Below, piece after piece: positions 11,795-50,243 of a DNA stretch of 64,000 nt. Source of the DNA: Methylophaga sp. (GTDB lineage Bacteria; Pseudomonadota; Gammaproteobacteria; Nitrosococcales; Methylophagaceae); assembly GCA_002733715.2 (NCBI GenBank), contig NVWQ02000064.1, forward strand, positions 1,587-65,586, given 5' to 3'. Position numbers and translations under genes: made by a program. The notes under the pieces were generated by a model. It saw nothing but the letters and a program-made list of their open reading frames with translations, was not told the origin of the DNA and did no database searches. Position 1 is the stretch's first letter; each line of letters opens with the position of its first letter.

Positions 11795-11805
11795 TATGGT
11801 TCTCC

Positions 11806-13657: not shown

Positions 13658-13702
13658 CAAATCTTGATTCTATACCTGTTATCATTCTTGGATTCAACTG
13701 AA

Positions 13703-18354: not shown

Positions 18355-18357
18355 TCT

Positions 18358-19728: not shown

Positions 19729-19730
19729 TT

Positions 19731-19904: not shown

Positions 19905-19972
19905 TGTGACTTTACCCGCTATTTATTTAGGACTAGGATAATCCCAATTTCCTGACTACTCAGTGACGTTAA

Positions 19973-19990
19973 TATTACAAATTTGTAATG
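19973..19990. promoter_or_regulatory. CusR/CopR-like palindromic box (copy 4) in the cusC / cusR divergent region
   Basis: TATTACAAA-TTTGTAATG lies 35 nt upstream of the cusR ATG and 245 nt upstream of the cusC ATG. The flank CTGAC-N6-GTGAC sits 5 nt to the left, in the same orientation as copies 1 and 3. Confidence 0.6.
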
Positions 19991-20024
19991 TGACTATTCA
20001 TCAAATATCGGGTAACCTTTAAAG

Positions 20025-20708: not shown

Positions 20709-20710
20709 TC

Positions 20711-22096
20711 ATGTCACAACCCACATCACTTACATTACGGCTCACACTATTATTTAGCATTGTTGCCACCATTGTCTTTCTTTCTTTCGGTTGGATTATG
20801 GAACGTTCTATCGAGAAACATTTTGAAATGGGCGATATAAAAGAGTTAAAACTCATATCTAATGCTGTGATACCCATATTGCAATCTGTCGATGCCAAAC
20901 AAGATGCAGCGCATCTTCAACAACGCTTTGACGACATATTGATTGGTCATCACCATCCCTTGCTTCGCATTACTGATAGCATTGGTAAGTTAATCTACAA
21001 CAGTCCAGAGTTGGACCTTACGCAAATTCCTATCCCCTTATCGACGTTACCTGAGCAACAACTAGTAAAAAAATGGCAGAATGACAATAATCATTACCGT
21101 ATATTATTTCAGCCTGCTAAAAGTAATACCGGCATGGCCTATACAGTTATGGTGGCTATTTCTACTGATTTTCATCAGCATTTTATCGCTAATTTCCGCC
21201 TTATTTTATGGGGAATGGTGTTGTTAGGTATTTTTGTAATGGGCTTAATGAGCTGGCTGGCAGTACGCTATGGCCATCGTCCTTTACGCTATATTACCGA
21301 TCAAATCAGCCATATTAGTAGCAATGAATTAAGCACGCGGCTTGATCCTCATGACGTACCCATTGAGCTCTCGAACTTAGCAACCTCATTTAATGACTTG
21401 TTAATGCGTATGGATAAGGCTTTTGATCAACTATCGAACTTTTCTGCTGACATTGCCCATGAGTTACGTACACCGGTCACTAATTTAATGACACAAACAC
21501 AAGTCGCTCTTTCTAGAACACGCAGCAATGAAGAATATCAAGAAGTGCTTTATTCTAATATGGAAGAGTTTGAACGTTTATCTCAAATGATTGCTGACAT
21601 GCTATTTCTGGCTAAAACGGACAATAAAATTGATCCGATTGAAATGGAAGATGTCGATTTAGAACAAGAAATACACAGCTTATTCGATTATTATGAAGCT
21701 TGGGCTGAAGAGAATGGCGTTTCACTCATCGTTGAAGGCAGTGTTCAACTTCAATGTAACCGTTTAATGCTACGAAGGGCAATCAGTAATCTTCTCTCTA
21801 ATGCAATACGGTATACCCGTAAAGGACAGGACGTTACTATAACGCTTAGCCAGGTTGAATACAGTGCCAGTATTGTTGTGCAAAACCCAGGCGAGCCAAT
21901 TCTGACTGAACATCTATCTAAATTATTCGATCGTTTTTACCGAGTTGATCCATCACGTCAACGCATCAGCGAAGGCACAGGACTAGGCTTAGCGATTACT
22001 AAATCAATTGTTGAAGCTCATGGCGGTAGTATTCACGCCACCTCAGACGAATCAAAAACTCAATTTCAGATCATTATTCCGATAGACTCTGAATAA
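20711..22096 (+). CDS. cusS: Heavy-metal sensor histidine kinase
   Basis: 461 aa with two TM segments flanking a periplasmic domain, HAMP, an H-box (FSADIAHELRTPVTNL), and N/G boxes (LLSNAIRYT, GTGLGLAI). Confidence 0.85.
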   Translation: MSQPTSLTLRLTLLFSIVATIVFLSFGWIMERSIEKHFEMGDIKELKLISNAVIPILQSVDAKQDAAHLQQRFDDILIGHHHPLLRITDSIGKLIYNSPELDLTQIPIPLSTLPEQQLVKKWQNDNNHYRILFQPAKSNTGMAYTVMVAISTDFHQHFIANFRLILWGMVLLGIFVMGLMSWLAVRYGHRPLRYITDQISHISSNELSTRLDPHDVPIELSNLATSFNDLLMRMDKAFDQLSNFSADIAHELRTPVTNLMTQTQVALSRTRSNEEYQEVLYSNMEEFERLSQMIADMLFLAKTDNKIDPIEMEDVDLEQEIHSLFDYYEAWAEENGVSLIVEGSVQLQCNRLMLRRAISNLLSNAIRYTRKGQDVTITLSQVEYSASIVVQNPGEPILTEHLSKLFDRFYRVDPSRQRISEGTGLGLAITKSIVEAHGGSIHATSDESKTQFQIIIPIDSE

Positions 22097-22367: not shown

Positions 22368-22538
22368 CTACTGGCGACTAATCGACCCCGCTTCGCTCTC
22401 CATGTCGATCAGCGTTGGAAAATCTTCTTCAATTAACTTTTCTACCGCTTGGGTTGCTTGAAACTGATTATCAAATAGCCCTAAGATTAATATTAATCTC
22501 GGTTGCATATTCTTGAACTGTTTTTTACTTTTAGCCAT
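22368..22538 (-). CDS. Possible small ORF (56 aa) downstream of glgP
   Basis: MAKSKKQFKNMQPRLILILGLFDNQFQATQAVEKLIEEDFPTLIDMESEAGSISRQ*. A good RBS (GAAGGTGAAAAATG) precedes it. The LGLFDNQxQAxQAVEKL stretch resembles the start of YflT/DUF1269-type stress proteins. Confidence 0.3.
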   Translation of the reverse strand: MAKSKKQFKNMQPRLILILGLFDNQFQATQAVEKLIEEDFPTLIDMESEAGSISRQ

Positions 22539-22573: not shown

Positions 22574-25099
22574 TTAGTGGTGCCATAGTATTAGGTTCTG
22601 CTCTGCTGGAATTTGTGCATCTGCGTGGTAAGGCACCACGCGTGGCGTAAACATATTTGGATCCAATCTTGTTTCAATATCAGCCTGATAACAATAACCA
22701 TGAATAGCACCGCTAATTTTTTCATGGCATTGGCATTGGATAACTAAAGGTGCATTATTTATTACCAAATCAGAATAAAGCTCCACTTGAACTTCATCTG
22801 GAGATATTTCACCTAAATAAATATGTATTTTAAATAAGTGCCCTGCATCACTTTTTGTTATCTCTAAATTGCTAAAATGAATTTGTTCCCAATGTTGTTG
22901 AAGTCTATGACTCCAGTCAAATAATTGTTTGGCAATTTCACCCTTGTTAGATTCACGCTGTTTGTATGCGACATGAGCTGGATGATAAAATTTTTCTACA
23001 TACTCGCGTACCATACGATTACTGCTAAATTGAGGAGCCAAGGTCATCAAGCTATTTCTGACAAGGCGCAACCATTGTCGAGGAATTCCTTGTGCATCTC
23101 GATTATAAAATAACGGAATAATTTCATTTTCTAGTCGTTGATAAAGCTGTTCAGCTTCGACATGATCCCAATCTAAACTAGAACCATGTTCTTGGCCATC
23201 GCCAACAAACCACCCAACATTTTCAGAAAAAGCCTCTGCCCACCATCCATCTAATTCAGATAAATTCAAACCACCATTAGCTAGAATCTTCATGCCACTA
23301 GTGCCACACGCCTCCCATGGACGGCGCGGAGTGTTAATCCAAACATCAACGCCTTGCACTAAATGCTGTGCTAGCGCAATATCATAATCTTCGAGGAACA
23401 CGACGTGTCCCCGAATACTAGGATCACTCACAAAGTCTATCCATTGCTTAATCATTAACTGACCATTAGCATCACTTGGATGAGCCTTGCCTGCAATAAT
23501 CAATTGCACAGGCCTAGTATTATTCGTTAATAAACGAATCAGCCGCGCTTTATCATGTAAAAGTAGATTAGGACGTTTATAGGTAGCAAATCGTCGAGCA
23601 AAACCAAGTGTTAAAGCGTTGGGATCTAACACCTGCTCTGTTTCATCGATTTGTTCAGGTGATGCCCCTATTTGCCCCATCTGGATGGCTAAACGTTTTC
23701 GTGCATAGTGAAGAAGATCTTCTCGTTCTTTTGTGCGTAACGTCCATAATGTCTCGTCACTAATTGCTTGAATAGAATGATGTAAGCTTTCTGTATTGCC
23801 TAGCCAGCGTTGTTTTCCACAAGCGTCAGTCCATAGTTTATCTGCCCATGATGAATCCCACGAAGGCACATGAATACCATTGGTGACATGACTTACAGGC
23901 ACCTCATTTTTTGGCCAGCGAGGATACAGATTTTTAAATAACTGACGGCTCACTTTGCCATGAAGCTCACTTACGCCATTACTACGAGCACAGCCTCTCA
24001 TGGCAAGATAAGCCATATTAAAGGGTTCAGAAGTATCGTTAGGATTTTCACGACCTAAAGCTAGAAGCTGTTGTAAAGTTAACCCTGTCTTGCTCAAAAA
24101 GTTATGAAATATTGGAAAGTATTTTTCAATCAACTGAGGTTGAAAAGTGTCAAAACCGGCGACGACCGGGGTGTGAGTTGTGAAGATATTACCTGCACGC
24201 GTTGCCCAGACGGCCTCTTGAAAAGAACACTCTTTTTGTTCCATATATTGGCGCGCACGCTCTAAAACAACAAAGGCAGCATGACCTTCATTAAGATGGC
24301 AAACAGAAATATCATCTCCTATCGCATCGAGTAGTCGCCAGCCACCAATACCTAACACTAATTCTTGTAGAAAACGTAATTCATTATTACCCCCATATAG
24401 TTTACTAGTGATACCTCGATCAAGAGGACTATTAATGGGATCATTACTATCCAGCAAATACAACTGAACTCGACCTACATTAACCTGCCAGACACGTAAC
24501 ATTAATTTTCTGCCAGGTAGGTTTAAGGTGATATATAAACACTCGCCATTTTCTTTACATAATGGCTGAATAGGTAACGTTGAAGGCTCATTGTATGGGT
24601 AAATTGCAAGTTGATGACCTTGCGCATCTAGCATTTGTCGGAAATAACCTTCTTGATAAAGTAAACCAATACCTATAACGGTCAGCCCCAGGTCGCTGGC
24701 CGTTTTAAGGTAGTCACCAGCTAAAATCCCTAAGCCTCCAGCATAAATAGGAAGTGCTTCACCAAGGCCAAATTCCATACTAAAGTAGGCAACTTTACCA
24801 ATATCTAAGTCAGTTTTATTTTCATCATACCAACTACCCGTAGATAGATAGCTTGTTCGTTCTTCAGTAAGCCGGTTTAATTCCTGACAAAATTCTTCAT
24901 CTTCAGCAAGCTGTTGCAATCGCTGTTTTGAAAGGTGCTGTAATAACGTCCATGGATTTTTAGTACGTTCCCACGTTTCCTCATCTAGCATACGCCATAA
25001 TACATCGGCCTTATGGCTCCAAGTCCAGCGTAAATCTAAAACTAAGTCACTAAGAGTCTGCAGATTTTGTGGTAAATCTGCTGGAAAAAAGAATGACAT
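22574..25099 (-). CDS. glgP: Alpha-glucan (glycogen/maltodextrin) phosphorylase, long alpha-glucan-family type
   Basis: 841 aa. Recognised motifs include LDLRWTWSH at the N-terminus, GGLGILAGDYLK, and EACGTSGMK (PLP lysine region). Confidence 0.85.
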   Translation of the reverse strand: MSFFFPADLPQNLQTLSDLVLDLRWTWSHKADVLWRMLDEETWERTKNPWTLLQHLSKQRLQQLAEDEEFCQELNRLTEERTSYLSTGSWYDENKTDLDIGKVAYFSMEFGLGEALPIYAGGLGILAGDYLKTASDLGLTVIGIGLLYQEGYFRQMLDAQGHQLAIYPYNEPSTLPIQPLCKENGECLYITLNLPGRKLMLRVWQVNVGRVQLYLLDSNDPINSPLDRGITSKLYGGNNELRFLQELVLGIGGWRLLDAIGDDISVCHLNEGHAAFVVLERARQYMEQKECSFQEAVWATRAGNIFTTHTPVVAGFDTFQPQLIEKYFPIFHNFLSKTGLTLQQLLALGRENPNDTSEPFNMAYLAMRGCARSNGVSELHGKVSRQLFKNLYPRWPKNEVPVSHVTNGIHVPSWDSSWADKLWTDACGKQRWLGNTESLHHSIQAISDETLWTLRTKEREDLLHYARKRLAIQMGQIGASPEQIDETEQVLDPNALTLGFARRFATYKRPNLLLHDKARLIRLLTNNTRPVQLIIAGKAHPSDANGQLMIKQWIDFVSDPSIRGHVVFLEDYDIALAQHLVQGVDVWINTPRRPWEACGTSGMKILANGGLNLSELDGWWAEAFSENVGWFVGDGQEHGSSLDWDHVEAEQLYQRLENEIIPLFYNRDAQGIPRQWLRLVRNSLMTLAPQFSSNRMVREYVEKFYHPAHVAYKQRESNKGEIAKQLFDWSHRLQQHWEQIHFSNLEITKSDAGHLFKIHIYLGEISPDEVQVELYSDLVINNAPLVIQCQCHEKISGAIHGYCYQADIETRLDPNMFTPRVVPYHADAQIPAEQNLILWHH

Positions 25100-25205
25100 A
25101 TAAACTCCTTAAAACAATACTGCTCTACTACGTATACCCTGCTTACCTTAACTTCTAAAGTTAACGTAATTTTATTATCATTTTATGTATAACTTAATAA
25201 AGTAT

Positions 25206-25223
25206 CTGTCATTTAGGTGACAG
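25206..25223. promoter_or_regulatory. Crp/Fnr-family-type palindrome CTGTCA-N6-TGACAG with a downstream -10
   Basis: Perfect 6-bp arms. A TATAAT lies at 25244-25249. If the TSS is about 25256, the dyad centre (25214.5) sits at -41.5, a class II activator position. A GGAGG RBS at 25262-25266 precedes the ATG at 25273. Confidence 0.5.
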
Positions 25224-25272
25224 TTGTTATCGATAGCATCAGATATAATTCAATAAACGTTGGAGGAAAATA

Positions 25273-25677
25273 ATGTTATTTGGATTATTATTCATCTGGA
25301 TCATCAGTACGGTTGGTTTGCTACTTGTCACTAAAATTGTACCTGGGGTACGAGCACACTCTATTGGTGACTTATTTATAGCAGCATTGATACTAGGATT
25401 CATCAATGCTTTTATACGTCCATTATTATGGGTGTTAACCTTGCCTTTAACTGTATTATCCTTTGGATTATTTGCCTTATTTATAAATGCCTTTATGATC
25501 CAAATTACAGCAATGATAGTGTCTGGTTTTGAAGTGGATGACTTCCCCAATGCCTTTATGGCAGCGATAATAATGGTGTTATTAGCCATTGCCGGGTTTA
25601 TTTTTGTGGAATGGTTTTTATTTGGTAGTGTATTTTGGGTTAACTTTAATACTAGTCATTTAGGTCTTGGAATGTAA
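25273..25677 (+). CDS. DUF360 / holin-4_2-family small membrane protein
   Basis: 134 aa with four TM segments. LILGFINAFIRPLLWVLTLPLTVLSFGLFALFINAFMI is typical of PF04020. A TAATG overlap joins it to ackA. Confidence 0.7.
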   Translation: MLFGLLFIWIISTVGLLLVTKIVPGVRAHSIGDLFIAALILGFINAFIRPLLWVLTLPLTVLSFGLFALFINAFMIQITAMIVSGFEVDDFPNAFMAAIIMVLLAIAGFIFVEWFLFGSVFWVNFNTSHLGLGM

Positions 25678-26876
25678 TGAAAGTAAATAAATCATTACAA
25701 ACTGTTTTAGTTATCAACAGTGGCTCATCAAGCCTAAAATTCTCACTGTTTTTAATTAAAAACCCTACCAATCTAAAGTTATTATATAAAGGCGAGATAA
25801 CACATATAGGGGAAAATAATAGCTCGTTTTCTGTTCACGACAACGAAACCCAGACAATACATCGGGCAATTGATGCCAACGATCATAAGCAGGCACTACA
25901 GCAATTTTTCCATTGGTTTAACAACGATACGCAATCATTAGAAATTGTAGCTGTAGGCCACCGTATTGTTCATGGTGGAATAAAGCTTCACCAACCAACA
26001 TTACTTTCAGAACAGGTTATTGATTACTTAAAAACACTGATCCCCTTAGCACCAAACCATCAGCCTGCCAATTTACAAGCTGTAGATTTACTGAATAAAC
26101 TTCAACCTACCCTTCCTCAAATAGCTTGTTTTGATACGGCATTTCATGCAAGCAGGCCAGATGTTGAGCAGTTTTTTGCCTTACCAAAAATACCTGCATT
26201 GAAAGATATACGGCGATATGGATTTCATGGTTTATCTTATGAATATATTGCCTCTGTATTGCCAGATTATCTAGGTGAACAGGCTCAAGGAAAAATCATT
26301 GTGGCACATCTAGGCTATGGAGCCAGCTTATGTGCAATTAAAAATCGTCGTAGTATGGCGACAACGATGACGTTTACTCCCTTAGACGGTATTCCAATGG
26401 CAACGCGTAGTGGCTCCATTGATCCCGCAGTTGTTTTGTATCTACAGCAACAAGGTATGACAAATCAGCAAATTTCAGATTTATTATATTTTCAATCAGG
26501 TTTATTAGGCGTTTCAGGCATCAGTGGCGACCTTCAAACCTTATTGAACAAACCTACACCAGAATCACGCTTTGCTATTGAATTATTTATACACAATATA
26601 GTACGCGCTATTGGTTCATTGGCAGCCACACTAGGTGGGCTAGACGCACTGATCTTTACAGGTGGAATAGGTGAAAATGAAATTGGCATCAGGGCTGCGA
26701 TTGCTGAAAAATGTAAGTGGCTTGGATTGAAGATAAATGCAGAAAGTAATGAGCAAAACAAACCTTGTATTTCACATCAAGATAGTAAGCTATCTGCTTG
26801 GGTAATAAGAACAAATGAAGAGTTAATCATTGCTCAATACACGCTTGCCACATTAAATAAACACGATAAGGATTAA
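25677..26876 (+). CDS. ackA: Acetate kinase
   Basis: 399 aa with [21 protein letters not shown], and the FHGLSYEY and TGGIGEN motifs. Confidence 0.9.
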
Positions 26877-26878
26877 CA

Positions 26879-29281
26879 ATGATACCTACAAATTTTACCA
26901 TTACAGAACAACCTTTATCTGCAAATGAATTAGGCAAAATTGATGCTTGGTGGCGAGCGGCAAACTATCTTTCAATTGGGCAAATATATTTATTGGATAA
27001 TCCTTTGTTAGAAGCGCCTCTTTCTTTAGCTCATATTAAACCTCGCTTGCTCGGACATTGGGGCACAACACCAGGCTTAAACCTTATTTATACACATCTT
27101 AATCGTGTGATTAAATCCCAAGACTTAAATATGATTTACATCACCGGCCCTGGTCATGGTGCGCCAGGTATTATTGCCAATACTTATCTTGAAGGCAGTT
27201 ATACCGATTTATATCCTAATATCACTCAAAATAAATCAGGTTTGCAACACCTATTTAAGCAATTTTCTTTTCCTGGCGGTATCCCCAGCCATACTGCGCC
27301 TGAAACACCCGGCTCAATTCATGAAGGTGGTGAACTTGGTTATTCGCTCAGTCACGCATTTGGTGCTGCGTTTGATAATCCTGATCTAATAGTGACGTGT
27401 GTAGTGGGCGATGGCGAAGCTGAAACAGGTCCGGCAGCAACAGCATGGCATTCTAATAAGTTTCTCAATCCTAAACGCGATGGTGCAGTATTACCTATAT
27501 TGCATCTTAATGGCTATAAAATTGCTAATCCAACAGTATTAGCTCGTATTAGTAGCGAAGAATTGGTAAACCTTTTCAGAGGCTATGGTTATAAACCTTA
27601 TTTGGTTGAGGGCGCTGAACCTTCATCCGTACATCAAGCAATGGCTGCAACCTTAGATGCGGTTATTGCTGAAATCAAAAACATTCAACACAATGCTCGA
27701 CAATCCGGTGATTCTACTCGGCCTCTTTGGCCTATGATTATTTTACGGACCCCTAAAGGTTGGACTTGTCCTAAAGAGCTTGATGGTTTAAGACTAGAAG
27801 ACTACTGGCGAGCTCACCAAGTGCCATTTGCTGAGTTGGCTGAAAAACCAGATCATATTCAAACATTAGAAAAGTGGATGAAAAGTTATCATCCTGAACA
27901 ATTATTTGATCATCAGGGGCGACTGAAAGAAGATATTGCCAGTCTTGCACCTGAAGGACAACGCCGTATGGGATCGAATCCTCACACTAATGGCGGCTTA
28001 ATGCTACGTGACCTTTTGTTACCAGATTATCGAGATTACGCTGTGAAGGTTGCTACACCCGGGACTATTTTAGGTGAGGCAACACGTAAAATGGGCGAAT
28101 ATCTCCGTGATGTGATGACGTTAAACGATCAATATTCAAATTTCCGAATTATGGGCCCAGATGAGACTAAATCTAACCGCCTAGGTGCTGTATTAGATGT
28201 AACCAATCGTAGTTGGATGGCTGAAACATTCAGTTATGATGACCATCTAGCTGCAGATGGTAGGGTGATGGAAATTTTATCAGAACATACCTGTGAGGGC
28301 TGGTTAGAAGGCTATTTATTGACTGGGCGGCATGGACTGTTTTCATGTTATGAAGCTTTTATTCATATCATTGACTCCATGTTCAATCAACATGCTAAAT
28401 GGCTTAAAGTCAGCAAAGAAATTGCTTGGCGACGCCCTATCGCCTCACTAAATATTTTACTTACTTCTCATGTTTGGCGACAAGATCACAATGGGTTCTC
28501 ACATCAAGACCCAGGTTTTATTGGTCATGTGATCAATAAAAAATCAGAGATTATACGTGTTTATCTGCCAGCTGATGCCAATACACTGCTTTGTGTGACA
28601 CAGCATTGTTTACAAAGTCGTGATCGTGTCAATGTTATTGTCGCTGGCAAACAGCCAGAACTACAATGGCTCGATATGGATGCAGCAACTCGCCATTGTC
28701 AAACAGGTATCGGTATTTGGGAATGGGCTAGTAATGATAAAGATAGTGAGCCTGATGTTGTTATGGCTTGTGCAGGAGATATCCCCACGCTTGAAACATT
28801 AGCTGCTGTCAAAATTCTTAATGAACATTTACCTGAATTAACAATAAGGGTGGTCAATATTGTTGACTTGATGACATTGGAGTCTAAAGAGCAGCACCCT
28901 AGTGGTCTTAATGACAAAGATTACGATGATCTATTTCCAACTAACATACCTGTTATTTTTGCATTCCATGGTTATCCTTGGCTTATTCATCGCTTGACCT
29001 ACCAACGCCACAATCATGATGATATTCATGTTCATGGTTATAAAGAAGAAGGCACAACAACAACACCGTTTGATATGACAGTATTGAATGATTTAGATCG
29101 TTTTCATTTAGTTAAAAATGTCGTTGATCGTATTGAAGGACTGGGTTCGAAACGTGCTTACTTAAAACAATTAATGCGTGACAAGTTGATTGAACACAAG
29201 CAATACATCTTTGACCATGGTCAGGATTTACCTGAAATTAGAGAGTGGCGCTGGCAAGCTAACGAAACTAAAAGAAGCTAA
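26879..29281 (+). CDS. xfp: Xylulose-5-P/fructose-6-P phosphoketolase
   Basis: 800 aa with [34 protein letters not shown], and GDGEAETGP (TPP binding). The length is typical of Xfp. Confidence 0.9.
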
Positions 29282-29284
29282 AAT

Positions 29285-30823
29285 ATGAAGAACAAAACAT
29301 CAACTATGCCCTCGCTTAAACTTCGCCGTGTTGCTATAGATACGTATAAAGAAAATGTAGCTTATTTACATCGCGACTGTCTTCTTTATCGAACAGAAGG
29401 ATTTCAAGCGCTTAGCAAGATTGAAATTCACCGTATAGGCAATGGAAATCCTGTTATAGCGGTATTGAATATTGTTGATGATGAAATAATTACGGCACCG
29501 GATCAATTAGGATTAAGTGAGCAAGTTTTTCAGCAACTTAATCTTGCTGAAGGTACTGAGGTCTTTATTAGCCATGCGTCACCACCTTCATCACTTAAAT
29601 CTGTTCACCTTAAAATTGCGGGCGAACGCCTGAGTTATGATGCCTATCATAAAATTATCCAAGACATAGTCAATAACCGTTATTCAAAGATTGAAATTAC
29701 AGCATTTTTAGTGGGTTGTGCCGAATCCGGTATGGAGCGTGACGAAATTTTAAGTTTAACTCGAGCGATGGTAAATACAGGGGAACGACTTGATTGGGGA
29801 GAGGATCTTGTCTCAGATAAACACTGTATTGGCGGTATTCCTGGCAATAGAACGACCATGTTAATCGTTCCTATTGTTGCAGCCCATGGCATGTTAATAC
29901 CTAAAACATCAAGCCGAGCCATTACCTCTCCTGCAGGCACAGCAGATACGATGGAAGTATTAGCTAATGTAAATCAGTCGCAACAGAAACTCCGTAAAAT
30001 GGTGCATCAACAACGTGCTTTCATAGTATGGGGAGGCACCGCTAATTTAGCGCCTGCAGATGATATTCTAATTGCTGTTGAGCGCCCTCTTTCTATGGAT
30101 TCAACTGGGCAAATGGTGGCGTCAATACTCTCAAAAAAAGTGGCTGCAGGTGCAACGCATTTATTAATTGATATTCCTATAGGCAAAACGGCAAAAGTTC
30201 GTAACTCAACTGAAGGCCAAAAGCTACGAAAAACATTTCAATATGTTGGTGACAAAATAGGCCTGCATATTGAGGTGGTTTTGACCAATGGTAGCCAGCC
30301 TATTGGCCGTGGAATAGGCCCTGTACTTGAAACAATAGATGTGATGAAAGTGCTTGAAAATGATCCCGAAGCCCCGCATGATCTACGCGAAAAATCATTA
30401 CAACTTGCAGGGCGAATAATCGAGTTTGATTTTGATGTGCGTGGCGGCCAAGGCTATGAAATTGCCCGTGATATTCTTGAGTCTGGGCGAGCCTTAGAAA
30501 AAATGAATGCCATAATCAATTCTCAGGGCAGAAATTTAGTCCTCCCAGAATTAGGTAAGTTACAGCATCAGATTGTTGCTTCTAAAGATGGCTTTATTGA
30601 AGCAATTGATAATCTTAAAATAGCGAGAATTGCACGGCTAGCAGGTGCGCCTATGGATAAATCTGCTGGAATATATCTGAATAAAAAAGTAGGCGATAAC
30701 GTTAAAAAAGGAGAAGTTTTATTTACCATTTACGCCCAATTTAATGCTGACTTTAAATTTGCAATAGCAGCAGCAGATAAAGAACCCTCTTATTCAATTC
30801 AAAGCGAGCTTAACCATGACTGA
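29285..30823 (+). CDS. Thymidine-phosphorylase-family enzyme with an N-terminal extension (archaeal AMP-phosphorylase-like)
   Basis: 512 aa with a ~90-aa extra N-terminal domain (LKLRRVAIDTYKENVAYLHRDC...). It is followed by glycosyltransferase-family-3 motifs (DKHCIGGIPGNRTT, TSPAGTADTME) and a PYNP C-terminal domain. Confidence 0.7.
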   Translation: MKNKTSTMPSLKLRRVAIDTYKENVAYLHRDCLLYRTEGFQALSKIEIHRIGNGNPVIAVLNIVDDEIITAPDQLGLSEQVFQQLNLAEGTEVFISHASPPSSLKSVHLKIAGERLSYDAYHKIIQDIVNNRYSKIEITAFLVGCAESGMERDEILSLTRAMVNTGERLDWGEDLVSDKHCIGGIPGNRTTMLIVPIVAAHGMLIPKTSSRAITSPAGTADTMEVLANVNQSQQKLRKMVHQQRAFIVWGGTANLAPADDILIAVERPLSMDSTGQMVASILSKKVAAGATHLLIDIPIGKTAKVRNSTEGQKLRKTFQYVGDKIGLHIEVVLTNGSQPIGRGIGPVLETIDVMKVLENDPEAPHDLREKSLQLAGRIIEFDFDVRGGQGYEIARDILESGRALEKMNAIINSQGRNLVLPELGKLQHQIVASKDGFIEAIDNLKIARIARLAGAPMDKSAGIYLNKKVGDNVKKGEVLFTIYAQFNADFKFAIAAADKEPSYSIQSELNHD

Positions 30824-31703
30824 TTCAACATTATTACTGGGGTTTCCTGAATATCATTCACAGGCACGTCGTTTAGCTAATGCCTCTGCTTTACCTTATG
30901 CTGAGGTTAAAATCCATCGTTTCCCTGATGGCGAAAGTAAAATAACACTTCCTGCACAGTTGCCAAAACATATTATTATTTGTCGTAGCTTAAATGCCCC
31001 TAATGAGAAGTTACTTGAATTATTTATGGTCGCAGCAAATGTGCGAGATCAAGGTGCTAAAACTATTAGCTTAATCTCCCCTTACCTTTGTTATATGCGT
31101 CAGGATAAAGCATTTCATACAGGCGAAGTGATAAGTCAACACGTTATTGGTAATATGTTGGCAAGTTATTTTGACAACATTTTAACTGTCGATGCACACT
31201 TACACCGCATATCACAACTGTCACAGGCGATACCTACCAAAAAAGCGATTAATCTCACCGCAACAGAGCCCATGGCTCATTTTATCCAAAAAAATATTAA
31301 ACAGCCCTTTCTTATCGGACCTGATGAGGAATCAGAGCAATGGGTTGCTGATATCGCCTCTCATTATAATATGGATTATAGTGTCGCCACCAAACAACGC
31401 TATGGCGACAAAAACGTTAAGGTTTCACTACCTGATGCTGACTATCGAAACCGTAATATCATCTTGGTTGACGATATAGCCAGTACAGGCAAAACATTAT
31501 TAGCAGCCACTAAAGAGTTGGCGAGATTTTCTCCAGCGTCTGTTTCCGTGTTAGTAACACATGCCTTATTTATTGATGATGCCCTAGCAGAATTAGAGCG
31601 TGAAAATATAAGTAATATTTGGAGCTGTGACACGATTCCTCATCACACAAACAGTGTCTTTCTGGCCGCTTTTTTTGCCAAAGCACTTGAGGAGATATTC
31701 TAA
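30816..31703 (+). CDS. Ribose-phosphate pyrophosphokinase (PRPP synthetase)-like protein
   Basis: 295 aa with the PRPP-binding loop IILVDDIASTGKTL and a YLCYMRQDK region. An 8-nt overlap (ATGACTGA) joins it to the preceding gene. Confidence 0.7.
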   Translation: MTDSTLLLGFPEYHSQARRLANASALPYAEVKIHRFPDGESKITLPAQLPKHIIICRSLNAPNEKLLELFMVAANVRDQGAKTISLISPYLCYMRQDKAFHTGEVISQHVIGNMLASYFDNILTVDAHLHRISQLSQAIPTKKAINLTATEPMAHFIQKNIKQPFLIGPDEESEQWVADIASHYNMDYSVATKQRYGDKNVKVSLPDADYRNRNIILVDDIASTGKTLLAATKELARFSPASVSVLVTHALFIDDALAELERENISNIWSCDTIPHHTNSVFLAAFFAKALEEIF

Positions 31704-31705
31704 AT

Positions 31706-34332
31706 ATGACAATACAAATTGATACTAAAGCTACCGATGAATACAGTGGTCAAAATGTTGAAGACATATTAAGAAGTTGGTCAATTGACGTTGAGTATGG
31801 TCTCAATGAAAGTCAAGTTAAAACAAGGTTTGAACACTTTGGTGCTAATGAAATTAAAACTAAGGAAGAACCCTTATGGCACCGCATATTTCGGCGTTTT
31901 TGGGGGCCTATTCCATGGATGATTGAAATTGCAGCTATTCTTTCTGCTGTGGTACAAAAATGGGAAGACTTTATTATTATTAGTGTCATGCTACTGATCA
32001 ATGCAGTTTTAGATTTTTTTCAAGAACATCGTGCATTAAATGCACTCAAAGCATTGAAACAGCAAGTTACACTTAATGTGAACGTGTTAAGACAGGGGCA
32101 TTTTATTGCTATACCCTCTTCTGAATTGGTACCTGGTGATATTGTTCACTTACGTATTGGCGATATTATTCCAGCGGATGTTCACCTTTTTGATGGTGAC
32201 TATCTATCAATTGATGAATCTTCATTAACAGGCGAATCATTACCGGTAACAAAGCGTCCCAACGATGTCGCTTATGCCAACACAATTATCAAACAAGGTG
32301 AAATGCGAGCCCTTGTCGTCAATACAGGCGTAAATACTCGATTTAACTCAGTTGCATCATTAGTTGCTAAAGCATCATTAGAAGAGCGTAGCCATTTTCA
32401 AAAAATGGTTATTCAAATAGGTGATTTTTTAATTATCTTATCACTCTCATTAGTGTCACTGGTCATCATCGTCGGATTATTCCGACATGAAGATTTTATG
32501 GATCTAACCCGTTTTGCATTGGTGTTAACTGTCGCAGCTATCCCAGTCGCTTTACAGCAGTATTATCGGTAACCATGGCTGTAGGGGCGCTTAATTTAGC
32601 TCGAAAAAAAGCCATTGTTTCTCGTCTTACTGCAATCGAAGAATTGGCAGGTGTTGATATTTTCTGTTCAGATAAAACGGGAACATTAACCAAAAATGAA
32701 ATGAGCGTCGCCCCCCCAATACTTTGTGATGGACACTCAGAACAAGAGTTGTTTTTCTATGCGGTGCTTGCCTCACGCAAAGAAAACAATGATCCTATAG
32801 AAGCGCCTCTTTTTTATTATTTAGCACAACATTTTCCTGATAGCAGTTGGCAGCAGTGGCAACAAAAAAGCTTTACGCCTTTTGATCCAATAAGCAAACA
32901 GACTTCTGCAGTAGTCAGCAAAGATAATGTTCAACTTACTGTTTTTAAGGGCGCGCCTCAAGTAATACTAAATATGACAGAGATGTCTGATAACGAGCTG
33001 ATTGCTATTAATAAAAGTATTGACTCGCTGGCTAGTAAGGGCTACCGAACGCTGGCAGTGGCAATTCAATATGAGGGTAAAAGTGTTGATTTGATCGGCC
33101 TTATTCCTCTTATCGATCCGCCGCGAGAAGATTCAAAACAAGTTATAAAAGATATGCGTAAATATGGTGTAGAAGTCAAAATGATTACAGGTGACAATAT
33201 CGCTATTGCACGTGAAATTGGTCATATGTTGGGTTTTAAAAAACGTGCCGTACGCTCGACACAAGTGACCGGAAAGTCAGGTCAGGAAATTATAGAGTTA
33301 TCACGCTCCTTATCGCACGCCATTTATCATAAACTGAATCCGAATGTATCTCATAAAGAGGCCCAACATTTTGCTGATACAGTTATAGAAGAACTGGATC
33401 AAATTTATGATACTAGTCTGCTAAAACAACAATTTATTCATACCCATGAATCAGCATTGGTGGCAATGATTGAATCGGTCGATATTTTTGCAGAAGTATT
33501 ACCAGAAGATAAATATGCCATTGTTGATACACTACAAAAAGCCGGGCACATTGTTGGTATGACAGGTGATGGAGTCAATGATGCTCCCGCGCTAAAAAAA
33601 GCAGACTGTGGTTTTGCTGTGTCGAATGCAACGGATGCCGCCCGAGCTGCCGCAGATATCATTTTAACGGAGCCTGGATTATCAGTGATTAACCATGCTA
33701 TTGAACAATCGCGCTACACATTTGAACGAATGAAAAGTTATGCCATGTTTCGTATTGCTGAAACTATTCGTATTATCATATTTATTTCGTTAAGCATTAT
33801 ATTGTTTAATTTTTACCCTCTTACTGCCTTGATGGTTATATTGCTAGCCTTACTGAATGATCTACCTATTATGGCTATTGCCTACGACAATAATGAATTA
33901 GACAGCAACCCTGTACGTTGGAATATGAAAGAATTATTTACCGTTGCCACTGTTTTAGGTATCACCGGTGTTTCAGCTTCATTTTTATTATTTTTTATAC
34001 TCCGTCAGTATGGATTAGAAGAAAATATCATTCAAACAATTATCTTTCTTAAACTGCTGATTGCAGGACATAGCACTATTTTTGTTACTCGAAATAAAGG
34101 TTGGTTTTGGGATACGCCCTTACCTTCGCCTATATTGCTTACTGCTATTTTTGGTACTGAGATTATCGGTACCTTATTTGCTGTGAACGGTATTTTTGTG
34201 ACCGCTATCAGTTGGCAATTTGCACTGTTAGCTTGGGGATATGCATTTATGGAATTTTTGTTAAATGACGTTGTAAAAATAGGTCTCTATAAACTTATCA
34301 ATGATCGAGAAACTGCCGCTCTTTCAATCTAA
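31706..34332 (+). pseudogene. P3A-type (plasma-membrane H+-ATPase-like) P-type ATPase split by a 1-nt frameshift
   Basis: ORF 31706..32572 ends ...AAIPVALQQYYR*. ORF 32575..34332 starts MAVGALNLARKKAIVSRLTAIEELAGVDIFCSDKTGTLT. Adding one C at about 32555 (TTA CAG -> TTA CCA G) restores the family-typical IPVALPAVLSVTMAVGA. Other motifs present: FWGPIPWMIEIAAILS, TGES, MTGDGVNDAPALKKAD, and LNDLPIMAIAYDN. Confidence 0.85.
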
Positions 34333-34400
34333 TACATTAATTTCTATATAAATAACTTATACTAATATTTGTAAACTTTAAACTAAATTGGAACACTCTC

Positions 34401-35429
34401 ATGGCCAAAAAAATCATCATTCTATTTGTACTCATACTTGCGACAGCTATAGGAATATATTATTTTTTGAACTCAAAGAACACCGTTGATGACACAAAGA
34501 TTGTTCTTTACGGGAATATCGATATCAGAGAGGCTCAGCTTGCATTTAATAGTAGTGAACATATAAATAAGTTGCTAGTGCAAGAAGGGGAACATGTAAA
34601 AAAAGGCCAACTATTGGCAACATTACATACTGAATTATTAGAATACGAGCTATTACAAGCTCAAGCTAAACTGATAGCAGATCAACAAAAATTAAAAAAA
34701 CTTGAGACGGGTTATCGAAAAGAAGAGATTGATAAAGCTAAAGCCCAATATCGTGCCGCCAAAGCTAAGGAAAAAGCAGCGATAGACAACTATCATAGAC
34801 TAAGCCCCCTTCTAAAGAAAAAGCTTGTGTCTCCAGAGGATGTTGAAAATGCTCAAGCATCAGCCGATGTTGCCCGAGCAGAAAGTCAGGCAGTTTATCA
34901 AGCACTTGTTTTATTAAAATCAGGCTTTCGTAAAGAAGATATTGCCGTAGCTAAAGCCGCTGTTACCGGTAGTGAAGCAACAGTTCAATTGATACAACAA
35001 AAGCTGGATGATACCCATCTTTATGCGCCTGATAATGGCATTATAAGAGATCGTATTCTTGAACTTGGGGAAATGGCTTTCCCTCAATCACCAGTGATGA
35101 CGCTTGCTTTTACAAATCCTGTATGGGTTCGTGCTTATTTATCTGAACCTGACTTAGGGAAAATTGCACTAGGCAGTCCTGCGACTATTTATACTGATAG
35201 CTACCCAAATAAAAGCTACCAAGGATGGGTGGGCTATATGTCACCTACTGCTGAATTTACTCCTAAAACTGTACAGACTGAACAATTACGCACACGGTTG
35301 GTTTACTCCATTCGAATTTATGCTTGTAATCCTCAAGATGAACTTCGTTTGGGCATGCCTGTTACCGTTCATTTGGCAGCGGATATCCCGCCCTCAGCAC
35401 AAGCTTCTGCCACCTCAGTCTGCCAATAA
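34401..35429 (+). CDS. HlyD-family membrane-fusion protein (YbhG-like)
   Basis: 342 aa with a signal anchor and a coiled-coil hairpin flanked by beta-barrel segments. It is the first gene of the ABC-2 exporter operon. Confidence 0.8.
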   Translation: MAKKIIILFVLILATAIGIYYFLNSKNTVDDTKIVLYGNIDIREAQLAFNSSEHINKLLVQEGEHVKKGQLLATLHTELLEYELLQAQAKLIADQQKLKKLETGYRKEEIDKAKAQYRAAKAKEKAAIDNYHRLSPLLKKKLVSPEDVENAQASADVARAESQAVYQALVLLKSGFRKEDIAVAKAAVTGSEATVQLIQQKLDDTHLYAPDNGIIRDRILELGEMAFPQSPVMTLAFTNPVWVRAYLSEPDLGKIALGSPATIYTDSYPNKSYQGWVGYMSPTAEFTPKTVQTEQLRTRLVYSIRIYACNPQDELRLGMPVTVHLAADIPPSAQASATSVCQ

Positions 35430-35431
35430 TA

Positions 35432-38291: not shown

Positions 38292-38297
38292 TCAGTA

Positions 38298-39407: not shown

Positions 39408-39417
39408 AAGCTGTTAA

Positions 39418-40188
39418 ATGAATTTCTTAACACGCTACCTTACTCGTAGAATACTAAAAAAAAATGCCATACCATTTAAACAATGGCGTGATATTACATC
39501 ACGTATTCCTTTAGTACAATTCAGAACAAATAAAGAAAAAGCACGACTTAGACTACTAAGTACATTATTCATTCACAAAAAATCATTTACCGGCGCCCAT
39601 GATTTAACTATAACGATGGATATGGCTATTACGATAGCCTGCCAAGCCTGTATAGAAATTTTATATTTGGGATTAAACGCCTTTAATGGCTGGATAGAGA
39701 TTATTATTTATCCTGCTGCATTTGTTGTACAGCGAGAAACGATGGATGAAAATGGTATTGTGCACAAGCAAGTCAATAATTTAAGCGGCGAATCATGGGG
39801 AAAAGGCCCCGTTATTCTGTCTTGGGAAGACGTGGAAAAGGATAGCTATTCACTGCACTCTGGGCATAATATTATCATTCATGAATTTGCCCATAAATTA
39901 GATATACTCTCTGGCAGAGCAAATGGGCAACCTCCGCTGCCGCCTAATATGTCAAAAGAAAAATGGTCTGAATATTTAGGAAAGGCTTATGAACGGCTAG
40001 TCAGTAAAATTAATCATCATGAACATACCTATATTAATAATTATGCCGCCACCAACTCAGCAGAGTTTTATGCTGTGTGTTGTGAATATTTTTTTACTGC
40101 TCCTCATAGTCTCAAACAACATAGCCCTGATGTTTATGGGCAACTACAAGCTTATTTTAGACAAAATCCTATTGAATTGTGGGATTGA
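39418..40188 (+). CDS. mtfA: MtfA-family (peptidase M90) zinc metallopeptidase
   Basis: 256 aa, collinear with E. coli MtfA: IIIYPAAFVV, SGESWGKGPVILSWEDV, HEFAHKLD (HExxH), and AEFYAVCCEYFF. Confidence 0.8.
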   Translation: MNFLTRYLTRRILKKNAIPFKQWRDITSRIPLVQFRTNKEKARLRLLSTLFIHKKSFTGAHDLTITMDMAITIACQACIEILYLGLNAFNGWIEIIIYPAAFVVQRETMDENGIVHKQVNNLSGESWGKGPVILSWEDVEKDSYSLHSGHNIIIHEFAHKLDILSGRANGQPPLPPNMSKEKWSEYLGKAYERLVSKINHHEHTYINNYAATNSAEFYAVCCEYFFTAPHSLKQHSPDVYGQLQAYFRQNPIELWD

Positions 40189-40239
40189 CTATTTGAAACT
40201 CGGGTATACTGTTACTTTCAATTAAAAATCAGGTTAAAA

Positions 40240-40659
40240 ATGAAAATTTGTGCCGTAGATCTTAAAGCAAACGATGCAATTATTTGCCTTATGTCGCTTT
40301 CTGATGGTTTATATAATTTACATGATTGTAGGATAAAAAAACTTTCGATTGTTGATGCAACAAGCACTGAGCAACTTAGATGCTTTCAAGTTGATTTTGT
40401 TAAATTGATGGAAGATTATCAAATCGAGAAAGTGGTTATTCGCGAGCGAATGACTAAAGGTAAATTTGCTGGTGGCGCGGTTAGTTTTAAATTAGAAGCC
40501 GCAATTCAGCTTAATAATTCACTAGAGGTTTCACTTCTATCTCCCTCTAAAATAAAAGAAACAATTAAAAATAGTCGTATAAAAATGAGCTTTTCTGAGA
40601 CAGGATTAAAACAGTTTCAAGAGCAGGCTTTTATGACAGGTTTTGCTTTTCTTGAGTAG
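40240..40659 (+). CDS. DUF3010-like hypothetical protein
   Basis: 139 aa. MKICAVDLKANDAIICLMS... and VVIRERMTKGKFAGGAVSFKLEAAIQL resemble my recollection of DUF3010. The assignment is from memory only. Confidence 0.4.
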   Translation: MKICAVDLKANDAIICLMSLSDGLYNLHDCRIKKLSIVDATSTEQLRCFQVDFVKLMEDYQIEKVVIRERMTKGKFAGGAVSFKLEAAIQLNNSLEVSLLSPSKIKETIKNSRIKMSFSETGLKQFQEQAFMTGFAFLE

Positions 40660-50240: not shown

Positions 50241-50243
50241 CGA

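Follow-up and report, generated by a model that had tools for sequence, protein, structure and literature searches.

The 64-kb stretch of DNA analysed here (the window) derives from a Methylophaga MAG, that is, from a marine methylotroph. On its minus strand lies a glgP-like gene for an alpha-glucan (maltodextrin/glycogen-type) phosphorylase with an N-terminal DUF3417 domain (22574..25099; TIGR02094, 829.9 bits versus a cutoff of 191.7; PF11897 and PF00343). It diverges, across a shared control region of 173 nt, from a run of plus-strand genes. The first of these encodes a four-TM membrane protein of the DUF360 family (25273..25677; PF04020, Phage_holin_4_2, 95.4 bits), followed by acetate kinase AckA (25677..26876; TIGR00016, 371.3 versus 293.4; PF00871) and a xylulose-5-P/fructose-6-P phosphoketolase, Xfp, with XFP_N, XFP and XFP_C domains (26879..29281; NF003619, 1468.7 versus 962). 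Next come a 512-aa TP-family enzyme of the archaeal AMP-phosphorylase type (29285..30823; NF003338, 700.7 and TIGR02645, 623.5, both above cutoff), a 295-aa prs-like ribose-phosphate diphosphokinase of the archaeal type (30816..31703; NF005537, 359.4 versus 322), and a split P3A-type P-type ATPase (31706..34332), both halves of which have TIGR01647 as their best model (293.7 and 566.3 bits). Profile models uphold the families originally assigned to glgP and the operon genes, and gene calls confirm every ORF placement claimed between 22574 and 31703, including the divergent position of glgP.

The junctions within this run are exactly as first described. There is a 1-nt TAATG overlap at 25677 between the DUF360 gene and ackA, gaps of 2 nt (ackA/xfp) and 3 nt (xfp/TP-like), an 8-nt overlap between the TP-like and prs-like genes (ATGACTGA), and a 2-nt gap before the ATPase. 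In NCBI's copy the TP-like protein has 505 aa rather than 512, so that its true start may be M8 at 29306, in which case the xfp/TP-like gap would be 24 nt. Sequence scans for internal promoters and terminators, which had been named as signs of independent transcription, yielded no evidence for signals in the junctions: promoter-like sites number 72 versus 64.5±9.3 expected, and every plus-strand terminator-like match falls within coding sequence. The original prediction of a single tight unit from 25273 to 34332 is therefore borne out in its packing, but the ATPase is not one ORF and the run extends past 34332.

Beyond the ATPase, Pfam matches on the plus strand identify a YbhGFSR-like exporter composed of an HlyD-type adaptor (34401-35429), a double ABC ATPase (35432-37168) and two ABC-2 permeases (37140-38291 and 38298-39407). 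The co-directional run ends with genes for an M90 (MtfA-like) peptidase and a DUF3010 protein (39418..40659). The successive gaps after the ATPase are 68 nt, 2 nt, an overlap, 6, 10 and 51 nt, and a hairpin scan found no terminator-like hairpins in the gaps from 34332 to 40659, the 68-nt gap included. Judged from its organization, the region from 22574 to at least 34332 is best described as one regulatory unit, which probably reaches approximately position 40659; the exporter is thus possibly encoded on the operon transcript.

In this assembly the ATPase, originally presented as a single gene, lacks one nucleotide of the Pro codon in its conserved IPVALPAVLSVTM motif; this 1-nt deletion, located between 32555 and 32556, leaves ORFs at 31706-32572 (288 aa) and 32575-34332 (585 aa). 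Inserting one C restores an ATPase of 875 aa, whose 79% identity to the intact 873-aa orthologue of a close relative (locus L081) extends over the entire length. A copA gene for a multicopper oxidase is also split by a 1-nt deletion, near 13050. Because two such deletions occur within the same 64 kb, a real pseudogene is no more likely than an assembly error. The region could alternatively be rearranged and eroding, with a true frameshift in an invariant motif of the pump. Consistent with such decay, a 56-aa remnant of a YflT-domain stress protein lies by the copper island and immediately 3ˊ of glgP (22368..22538, minus strand); in tblastn it is 57% identical to residues 1-42 of a 194-aa YflT protein at locus L082, and full-length YflT genes neighbour the operon modules in L082, L169 and L170. 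We nevertheless consider decay improbable, since the pump halves match the intact orthologue over their full length with no other lesions, the other operon genes are all intact, and a second lone 1-nt deletion, in copA, looks more like an error of MAG assembly or sequencing.

The best structural matches of the ATPase are AHA2 (5ksd) and Pma1 (7vh5), together with 1mhs. The DKTGT motif and the equivalents of AHA2 Asn106, Arg655 and Asp684, residues whose roles have been described (PMC10654040), are conserved. These features point to H+ as the probable transported ion, although what prokaryotic P3A ATPases transport has yet to be established (PMC10654040).

The TP-like enzyme most closely resembles a solved structure from T. 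kodakarensis (4ga5/4ga6, E = 2e-105) and scores 522.5 against TIGR03327 (AMP_phos), slightly below the cutoff of 535, making it a candidate nucleoside-monophosphate phosphorylase. For the prs-like protein, the best PDB matches are 4twb, 1u9y and 3lpn, with which its RQDK, DAH and VDDIxSTG motifs align. A survey of 80 proteobacterial TP-like loci, each from a different species, found the prs-like gene directly 3ˊ of the TP-like gene in 74, whereas xfp, ackA, glgP and DUF360 genes were within 10 kb in none and a P3A ATPase was close in only two; of these neighbours, only the prs-like gene is general. In relatives such as L002, L084 and L086-L088, an ordinary promoter of the TTGACC-N17-TATAAC type precedes the pair, without the palindrome described below, which argues that the role of this cassette is general and independent of the palindrome regulon. 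The two genes appear to be an independent, widely conserved pair recruited to the operon, most likely to handle the adenylate pool. The TP-like enzyme would convert AMP or another NMP and Pi to the base and ribose-1,5-bisphosphate, clearing AMP and liberating ribose, while the prs-like enzyme, as a PRPP synthase, would serve re-salvage. The suggestion that nucleotide ribose is itself fermented is not sustained, as no enzyme is evident that leads from ribose-1,5-bisphosphate to pentose phosphates or a phosphoketolase substrate.

The control region includes the palindrome CTGTCA-N6-TGACAG (25206..25223), the sole perfect TGTCA-N6-TGACA sequence in the 64 kb. A −10 hexamer for the operon (TATAAT, 25244..25249, plus strand), which lacks a −35 hexamer, and a −10-like hexamer for glgP (TAAAAT, 25180..25185, minus strand) are each located 20 nt from it. 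Perfect copies number six in four genomes (one each in the window and L081, two each in L082 and L169), all in promoters of the operon-type modules; the expectation, estimated from base composition, is about 0.07 per 64 kb. When one mismatch or fewer is allowed, which is the only case covered by the shuffle control, five sites are found versus a shuffle mean of 2.4. A TAnnnT hexamer is present 20-21 nt from the palindrome at 11 of 11 gene-facing flanks and at none of three others, against a background of 6.2%. The perfect palindrome and the −10 geometry common to these modules in four genomes are new here. This spacing corresponds to a class II CRP/FNR-type activator layout, and we propose that the palindrome is a candidate class II (−41.5) site serving both divergent promoters. 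It is not an FNR/Anr/FixK box: its sequence is TGTCA-N6-TGACA, and reading the control region by eye revealed no TTGAT-N4-ATCAA. In addition, both of the Crp-family proteins encoded next to the L082 motif lack an FNR-type cysteine cluster. For these reasons oxygen can be put forward as the inducing signal by analogy only. No regulator or USP gene was found within the window.

One close relative, L081 (TP-like protein 90% identical, pump intact), has its genes in exactly this order, and other Methylophaga-like genomes carry the modules in shuffled form. In L082/L083 the arrangement is TP-prs | glgP | DUF360-ackA-xfp-ATPase, with glgP again divergent as it is in L081, and genes for YflT, an MBL/beta-CASP RNase, PpsA and two Crp-family proteins lie beside it. 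The TP-prs pair is followed directly by the YbhGFSR-like set in L084/L085; in L086 and L087, TP-prs-ATPase directly precedes an M90 peptidase gene and an ORF of 137 aa. The same ABC set is near xfp-YflT-MBL in L169, xfp sits inside a glgA/B/C cluster in L171, and L170 combines a P3A ATPase with GlgX-DUF360-ackA-xfp-STAS-H+-PPase. The DUF360 gene is 5ˊ of ackA-xfp in L081, L082, L083 and L170, and adjoins P3A ATPases in L090 and L093. Because the same modules (glgP, DUF360-ackA-xfp, TP-prs, the P3A ATPase and the YbhGFSR-like ABC set) re-associate in varied orders in related genomes, their linkage is not accidental. Among 80 P3A-ATPase loci, TP or prs genes are near the ATPase in none, ackA in seven, xfp in four, glgP in four, PpsA in seven and MBL/beta-CASP in six, with Usp, PPK2, class I aldolase and LOG-type enzymes at 6-7 each. 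Distant lineages repeat the link between pump and fermentation, as in the contiguous ackA-xfp-ATPase of L143. Full fusion of the modules is rare, and does not constitute a general system.

We consider it somewhat better than an even chance that the locus is an activator-controlled fermentation and proton-pump unit for energy supply without respiration. A dimeric CRP/FNR-family activator would bind at 25206-25223, about 41.5 bp 5ˊ of the two −35-less promoters, and switch the unit on upon failure of the respiratory energy supply. Leftward output would be glgP; rightward output would be DUF360-ackA-xfp-TPlike-prslike-P3A ATPase, perhaps continuing into the exporter. On established enzymology, GlgP would draw on stored glucan, releasing glucose-1-P without spending ATP, and the rearrangement enzymes of a RuMP-cycle methylotroph would furnish F6P and Xu5P. 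Phosphoketolase would convert these to acetyl-phosphate with zero net redox change, acetate kinase would yield ATP and acetate, and the pump would spend ATP on H+ expulsion, holding the membrane potential and removing the acid load. The signal, the flux directions, H+ as the pumped ion and what the TP-like and prs-like enzymes act on are inferred.

Alternatively, Xfp and AckA might serve growth, by carbon-efficient C2 units or overflow, with TP-prs, the ATPase and the ABC set being co-located stress or housekeeping genes that share no common energy function. The Methylophaga host, indicated by the NCBI name of a protein with 100% identity, a Fae gene within the window, the xfp gene in the glycogen synthesis cluster of L171 (consistent with general carbon-storage traffic) and the solitary TP-prs of most genomes all fit this carbon-economy explanation. 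We judge it unlikely. Xfp is consistently paired with AckA, not Pta or Acs, both in the window and in L081, L082, L170 and L143, which indicates formation of ATP rather than acetyl-CoA. Moreover, the predicted activator-dependent promoter is common to the degradative glgP, the modules repeatedly occur with ion pumps (P3A ATPases, and H+-PPase in L170), and the homologous Bradyrhizobium operons are induced by microoxia (PMC9104804).

It is similarly doubtful that the pump, perhaps with the DUF360 protein and the ABC exporter, serves to dispose of Xfp-AckA protons and acetate, or to withstand acid from outside or stress of other kinds, instead of sustaining proton motive force. Acid is the product of acetate kinase, the pump gene is directly 3ˊ of xfp in L082 and L143, and plant and fungal P3A pumps double as cytosolic pH-stats (PMC10654040). 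Against this, no acetate-forming genes lie within 10 kb of the TP-prs-ATPase units of L086 and L087. The reaction is physically identical to that of the energy-supply model, and the two readings are therefore not exclusive.

The preferred energy-supply model has parallels in low-oxygen loci of other proteobacteria, where similar co-localisation had been suggested at the outset and is supported by the literature. Two operons of B. diazoefficiens, xfp-ack (bll2518-17) and TP-prs-MBL (bll3117-15), depend on FixK2, their expression at 0.5% O2 being 10-fold and 6.6- to 30-fold lower, respectively, in ΔfixK2; ppsA, a USP and an HlyD/ABC operon are likewise FixK2-dependent in Bradyrhizobium (PMC9104804). 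A table of microoxia-regulated genes and proteins likewise lists the phosphoketolase gene bll2518 and the TP-prs-MBL genes bll3115-3117 (PMC6515984). A cyanobacterial phosphoketolase is described as activated upon a fall in ATP (PMC10365998). A maintenance-energy role is plausible: co-regulated modules and low-oxygen homologues favour it, but the pump is frameshifted, the fusion is rare and the ribose step has no enzyme. Whereas xfp-ack and TP-prs-MBL are separate FixK2 operons in Bradyrhizobium, the xfp-ack and TP-prs genes are in one operon here. The lxa locus of B. cenocepacia, which is required for anoxic survival (PMC3721108), resembles the Methylophaga run in having ackA, a P-type cation ATPase and an ABC system. 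The Methylophaga operon is a compact, differently wired version of low-oxygen or energy-stress gene sets known from other bacteria.

The ORF calls for the window contain every gene named in the original prediction, and each of the operon junctions described there is exact in the sequence. Curated protein models confirm the families of the products, which are an alpha-glucan phosphorylase with a DUF3417 domain (glgP, 22574-25099, −) and, on the + strand, a DUF360/PF04020 membrane protein (25273-25677), acetate kinase (ackA), phosphoketolase (xfp), a 512-aa thymidine phosphorylase (TP)-family protein (TP-like, 29285-30823), a 295-aa PRPP-synthetase-like protein (prs-like, 30816-31703) and a P3A-type ATPase (31706-34332). 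The phosphoketolase scores 1468.7 bits against the NF003619 cutoff of 962 and matches all three XFP domains (PF09364, PF03894 and PF09363). The kinase scores 371.3 bits with TIGR00016 (cutoff 293.4) and 365 bits with PF00871, matches that identify an acetate/propionate kinase. The minimal junction ahead of the TP-like gene is 3 nt as called, but it might be 24 nt because the deposited protein begins at M8. The co-directional run had been thought to end with the pump at 34332. Instead, it goes on with short gaps to 40659, through a YbhGFSR-like HlyD/ABC/ABC-2 exporter, an M90 peptidase and a DUF3010 protein. No hairpin was found in the 68-nt AT-rich stretch that follows the pump gene, and Rfam and tRNA scans of the 64-kb window returned no match.

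The ATPase gene is not the single intact ORF that had been assumed. The Pro codon of IPVALPAVLSVTM has lost one base, between 32555 and 32556, and this deletion splits the reading frame into two ORFs. Restoring the base yields an 875-aa pump that is 79% identical from end to end to the orthologue of a close relative (locus L081), which is intact at 873 aa, and the reading frame is unbroken in the orthologues of L081, L086 and L087. The window holds a second isolated 1-nt deletion in its 64 kb, in the gene for a CopA-type multicopper oxidase (11806-13556, −). This gene is read as two overlapping ORFs because of a change from ATAATT to ATATT at about 13042-13061, and inserting one base gives a 583-aa ORF. 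Such a recurrence suggests that the MAG contains sequencing or assembly errors, and for this reason we give an assembly error at least the same likelihood as a true pseudogene in explaining the break in the pump. A programmed frameshift or a split pump was considered and rejected because of the nature of the lesion, which is the simple loss of 1 nt from an invariant motif, and because of the similar loss in copA.

Both halves of the pump have TIGR01647, the P3A equivalog model, as their first-ranked match (293.7 and 566.3 bits), with each half alone falling below the 615.5 cutoff. When the repaired pump is ranked against the structure database, AHA2 (527 bits) and Pma1 (508 and 498 bits) stand far above P2 and P3B pumps, the best P2 pump reaching 301 bits. 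In the aligned segments LLNDLPIM, ETIRII, LINAVLDF and CSDKTGT, the residues of the proton path, whose roles are described in PMC10654040, are kept along with DKTGT, namely the Asp of TM6 (D684 in AHA2), the Arg of TM5 (R655) and the Asn of TM2 (N106). By best model and structure match, the protein is predicted to be a P3A ATPase of the plasma-membrane type.

The TP-like protein finds its best structure match in the AMP phosphorylase of T. kodakarensis (4ga5/4ga6, E = 2e-105), with the 4ga5 alignment covering residues 70-500, and matches to PyNP and TP are at 1e-41 or weaker. It carries an N-terminal extension that is absent from TP and PyNP, and its profile match begins at residue 10-11. The protein passes TIGR02645, the archaeal-type 'putative thymidine phosphorylase' model (623.5 versus 434.6), and at 522.5 bits lies narrowly below the cutoff of 535 for the AMP_phos equivalog TIGR03327. 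It may work like an NMP phosphorylase and is a possible member of the characterised AMP phosphorylase family. The prs-like protein passes NF005537 (359.4 versus a cutoff of 322) with the FPDGE, RQDK, DAH and VDDIASTG motifs aligned. Its best structures are 4twb, 1u9y and 3lpn, which we take to be archaeal class III PRPP synthases (Sulfolobus, M. jannaschii and Thermoplasma). Model and motifs thus point to an archaeal-type ribose-phosphate diphosphokinase. Our literature search found no characterised bacterial AMP phosphorylase, only papers on CPR and archaeal RuBisCO pathways, and a paper on a Methylophaga reactor transcriptome mentions the housekeeping prsA alone.

The conservation of this neighbourhood was surveyed from the TP side with one genome per species, using the best 80 loci (59-77% identity) from Gamma-, Beta-, Zeta- and some Deltaproteobacteria. 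The association of TP-like with prs-like holds, as the latter lies directly downstream in 74 of the 80 loci, and three of the six loci that lack it there stop at a contig end. The other associations do not extend across this sample. Specifically, xfp, ackA, glgP and DUF360 are absent within 10 kb of the TP-like gene in all 80 loci, and a close P3A pump adjoins it in only two (L003 and L005). De novo clustering of neighbours revealed weak recurrent partners (DUF1614 in 12 loci, an ABC exporter in 10, an MBL/beta-CASP protein in eight and HD-GYP in six) and no fixed third gene. Because prs-like is the only fixed partner and the pump is a rare one, the TP-like and prs-like genes (TP-prs) constitute an autonomous two-gene cassette.

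Close relatives tell a different story from this survey. In L081, whose TP-like protein is 90% identical, the gene order is the same as in the window and the pump is intact. At 84% identity (L082/L083), TP-prs is preceded by leftward-running genes for Crp, Trx, Crp, PpsA, MBL/beta-CASP and a YflT-domain protein, and is followed by glgP, also leftward, and then by DUF360-ackA-xfp-ATPase. L082 comes from assembly GCA_054017435.1 and L086 from GCA_048262315.1. The loci at 80% (L084/L085) carry TP-prs-YbhGFSR, those at 75% (L086/L087, Methylophaga) carry TP-prs-ATPase-M90, and L088 has TP-prs by itself. When approached from the xfp side, L169 shows an ABC system and then xfp-YflT-MBL, L170 shows a P3A ATPase and a YflT-like gene followed by GlgX-DUF360-ackA-xfp-STAS-H+-PPase, and L171 places xfp within a glgA/B/C cluster. 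A pump-side survey of 80 metagenomic P3A loci (45-71% identity) found ackA near seven, xfp near four, glgP near four, PpsA near seven and MBL/beta-CASP near six, with ackA-xfp-ATPase contiguous in L143, and TP or prs near none of the 80. Other recurrent neighbours of these pumps are Usp (7/80; none is present in the window), PPK2, class I aldolase, PHB depolymerase and a LOG-type enzyme ('possible lysine decarboxylase' family), some members of which are NMP nucleosidases. These modules form a pool that has been joined repeatedly in changing orders, and among the loci seen the arrangement in the window is the most condensed.

Several observations accompany these neighbourhoods. In L170, an H+-translocating pyrophosphatase gene (13264-15264) is found two genes downstream of GlgX-DUF360-ackA-xfp and the P3A ATPase gene 6 kb upstream, placing two ion pumps beside the same fermentation module. 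The YflT-domain stress protein (194 aa) that adjoins these modules in relatives is matched in the window, at its N-terminus only, by a 56-aa ORF (22368-22538, −) between the copper genes and glgP. This ORF seems to be what is left of the gene after truncation at the point where the copper island meets the cluster. That island (10892-22096) is a complete copper-resistance locus directly upstream, with genes for CopB, CopA, CusA, CusB (with a CusF domain), CusC and CusRS, and is unrelated to the operon. Further upstream are MerR, DUF2231, DUF411 and YHS genes (2248-4504) and a gene for a 780-aa fatty acid cis/trans isomerase (CTI; 4629-6971, −), a membrane stress-adaptation enzyme best known from Pseudomonas and Vibrio. 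Divergent genes for Fae (formaldehyde-activating enzyme) and a truncated-haemoglobin-type globin (44688-45809) are located 4 kb downstream of the cluster. GlcD-GlcE-GlcF-like glycolate oxidase genes occupy 48759-51979. The middle ORF there has only 187 aa and matches FAD_binding_4 in part, and it may represent a further case of truncation or frameshift. Finally, an RNase J-like MBL/beta-CASP gene (59365-60741, −) is only distantly related to the one co-regulated with TP-prs in relatives, with 31% identity over 89 aa.

The 173-nt control region between glgP and DUF360 contains the only perfect TGTCA-N6-TGACA palindrome in the window (25207-25222; 25206-25223 when extended to CTGTCA...TGACAG). 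Perfect copies also occur between glgP and DUF360 in L081 and L082, between YflT and TP-prs in L082, and upstream of both xfp and YflT-MBL in L169. A TAnnnT hexamer starts 20-21 nt from the palindrome in 11 of 11 gene-facing flanks and in none of three others, compared with a background of 6.2%. The window has TATAAT as the hexamer on the operon side (25244-25249, +) and TAAAAT on the glgP side (25185-25180, −). Given this spacing, we infer that the palindrome is positioned near −41.5 of promoters without a −35 element, which is the class II layout of CRP/FNR sites and makes it a candidate site for such a regulator. The same geometry suggests that it is used bidirectionally, with glgP and the operon switched together.

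The control region lacks a box of the FNR/Anr/FixK type (TTGA-N6-TCAA core) and has TGTCA-N6-TGACA instead, and no TTGAT-N4-ATCAA-like site was seen on reading 25100-25272 by eye. Upstream of TP-like genes in 80 diverse genomes, TGTCA-N6-TGACA is absent save for one match with one mismatch. Therefore, the palindrome is a clade-specific feature and not a universal one of the TP-prs cassette. The TTGAT-N4-ATCAA sequence is present upstream of TP-like in 4 of 76 loci where about 1.4 would be expected, an excess too weak to support a claim. Relatives without the palindrome have a conserved TTGACC-N17-TATAAC-like promoter ahead of TP-prs. In two unrelated genomes (L002, about 9815-9930; L086, about 9610-9720), a tRNA-like sequence recognised by eye precedes this promoter just upstream of TP-prs, and it could mark a preferred insertion point for the cassette.

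A candidate regulator is found in L082 (57-2574, −), where two Crp-family genes flank genes for a thioredoxin and a 113-aa ORF of unknown function. A palindrome with one mismatch lies at 1765, upstream of the orf113-thioredoxin-Crp operon. Both Crp-family proteins lack the FNR cysteine cluster. One, of 237 aa, has an FNR-like recognition helix (ETLSR), and the helix of the other, a 242-aa protein, reads RQVVNR, making the latter the candidate binding factor for TGTCA-N6-TGACA. CooA uses Arg-Gln and binds half-sites of the TGTCA type, a possible resemblance that is a lead and not a test. Neither protein has a homologue in the window or in the other loci, and no regulator for the operon was found encoded in the window. 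The CusRS pair (20025-22096) was considered for this role and rejected, as it belongs to the adjacent CopB/CopA/CusCBA copper island. A literature search for the motif string gave no match.

In light of these corrections, the observation of the operon is real, and its interpretation in the original prediction as a module for maintenance energy independent of respiration is partly supported. Presumably, glucan would be opened by phosphorolysis at no ATP cost, and an obligate respirer would have no need of an electron sink because phosphoketolase cleavage is redox-neutral. ATP would come from acetate kinase, and the pump, at 1 H+ per ATP, could keep the membrane potential high even when the phosphorylation potential is low. 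We infer these steps from established enzymology. The role of the TP-like and prs-like proteins is the weakest link of this scheme. Removal of AMP with later salvage would fit the recurrent TP-prs-ATPase unit, and also the LOG-type enzymes near other P3A pumps if these are NMP nucleosidases. No enzyme joining ribose-1,5-bisphosphate to the pentose phosphates was found.

A more elaborate proposal, which we regard as unlikely, makes this pair a bacterial version of the nucleotide-ribose pathway of archaea. When energy fails, RNA would be degraded to 5'-NMPs by the co-regulated RNase J-like MBL/beta-CASP protein, and the NMP phosphorylase would remove AMP and free ribose-1,5-bisphosphate. The ribose would then pass, with the prs-like enzyme, to phosphoketolase, acetyl-phosphate and ATP, and the P3A pump would energise the membrane at 1 H+ per ATP with the respiratory chain idle. 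If true, this proposal would provide the first physiological role for bacterial P3A ATPases and for the widespread TP-prs cassette.

Many strict aerobes, among them methylotrophs, methanotrophs, nitrifiers and sulfur oxidisers, outlast anoxia by energising themselves in ways that are only partly understood. Under a single switch, the predicted functions of the locus bring together a source of ATP that is redox-neutral (glycogen to acetyl-phosphate), a cassette for handling adenylates and a proton pump driven by ATP, and so offer a compact, testable model. They also provide a physiological context in which the function of bacterial P3A ATPases and of the TP-prs pair becomes directly testable. 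This pair shows at least 60% identity across Gamma-, Beta- and Zetaproteobacteria and is a FixK2 target in Bradyrhizobium. In addition, the palindrome and the candidate Crp-family regulator that adjoins it in one genome give an experimental handle on the signal.

The AMP phosphorylase TK0353 of Thermococcus kodakarensis (PDB 4ga4-4ga6) is similar to the TP-like protein in length (~500 aa), in its extra N-terminal domain and in the catalytic blocks GGxPGNxT and SSRAITSxAGTAD. However, the score of the TP-like protein stays slightly below the AMP_phos cutoff and places it with the sister model TIGR02645, and its fixed partner is a Prs-type kinase, whereas the archaeal pentose bisphosphate pathway employs ribose-1,5-bisphosphate isomerase and RuBisCO. 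The pump has Arabidopsis AHA2 and the Pma1 proteins of yeast and Neurospora as its top structural matches and shares their DKTGT and the Asn, Arg and Asp of the proton path. It lacks the long regulatory N- or C-termini of these eukaryotic proteins, has an extra insert of ~40 aa between two AHA2-aligned regions (query residues 521-587) and, unlike AHA2 and Pma1, is encoded in an operon with ATP-forming enzymes. A 2023 review describes the transport function of prokaryotic P3A ATPases, found mainly in methanogens, as one that 'remains to be determined' (PMC10654040).

Redox-neutral substrate-level phosphorylation from sugar phosphates by Xfp and AckA is known from the bifid shunt and non-oxidative glycolysis. 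A study on the ATP-sensitive cyanobacterial phosphoketolase offers a precedent for action when ATP falls (PMC10365998). Unlike in the window, the genes of these systems stand apart from any proton pump or nucleotide phosphorylase cassette. Phosphoketolase goes unmentioned in a review on methanotrophs under anoxia.

The original prediction also pointed to low-oxygen loci in other proteobacteria, and such precedents exist. The lxa locus of B. cenocepacia J2315 is an island of 50 genes required for anoxic survival of an obligate aerobe, and it encodes acetate kinase, a cation-transporting P-type ATPase, ABC/outer-membrane transport, a metal-dependent RNase and CRP-family regulators, and is rich in USPs, PHA synthesis, pta and ribonucleotide reductase (PMC3721108). 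Its gene order varies among species, and many of its promoters carry an inverted repeat of 4 bp whose halves are separated by 6 bp (PMC3721108). Neither phosphoketolase nor a TP-like/Prs pair appears in the text of that paper (PMC3721108). The lxa motif shares TGA-N6-TCA with Anr/Fnr boxes, and the window motif differs. In B. diazoefficiens, bll2518-bll2517 (phosphoketolase and acetate kinase) and bll3117-bll3116-bll3115 (TP family, Prs and MBL hydrolase) each have a FixK2 box and fall 10-fold and 6.6- to 30-fold, respectively, in a ΔfixK2 strain at 0.5% O2, and the same FixK2 list includes ppsA, USP, nitroreductase and an HlyD/ABC operon (PMC9104804). The genes bll2518 and bll3115-3117 are also listed among microoxia-regulated genes and proteins (PMC6515984).

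The window shares the Xfp-Ack and TP-prs families with these Bradyrhizobium operons, with enzyme functions predicted by family in both, and the MBL hydrolase is shared with L082 and L169. Of the gene content typical of lxa and FixK2 loci, the window has ackA, the ATPase and an ABC system, and MBL/beta-CASP, PpsA, YflT and Crp are found in its relatives only. Both organisms have a promoter palindrome for a CRP/FNR-family activator, which is a predicted one in the window. In Bradyrhizobium, however, the operons are separate, lie at distant loci and carry a TTGA-N6-TCAA FixK box, whereas the window has one fused operon with TGTCA-N6-TGACA and adds glgP and DUF360, and its P3A pump is absent from the Bradyrhizobium table (PMC9104804). 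By analogy with Bradyrhizobium and lxa, a low-oxygen link for the operon would not be new in kind. What is new is the fusion into one operon with glgP, the different operator and, probably, the P3A type of the ATPase.
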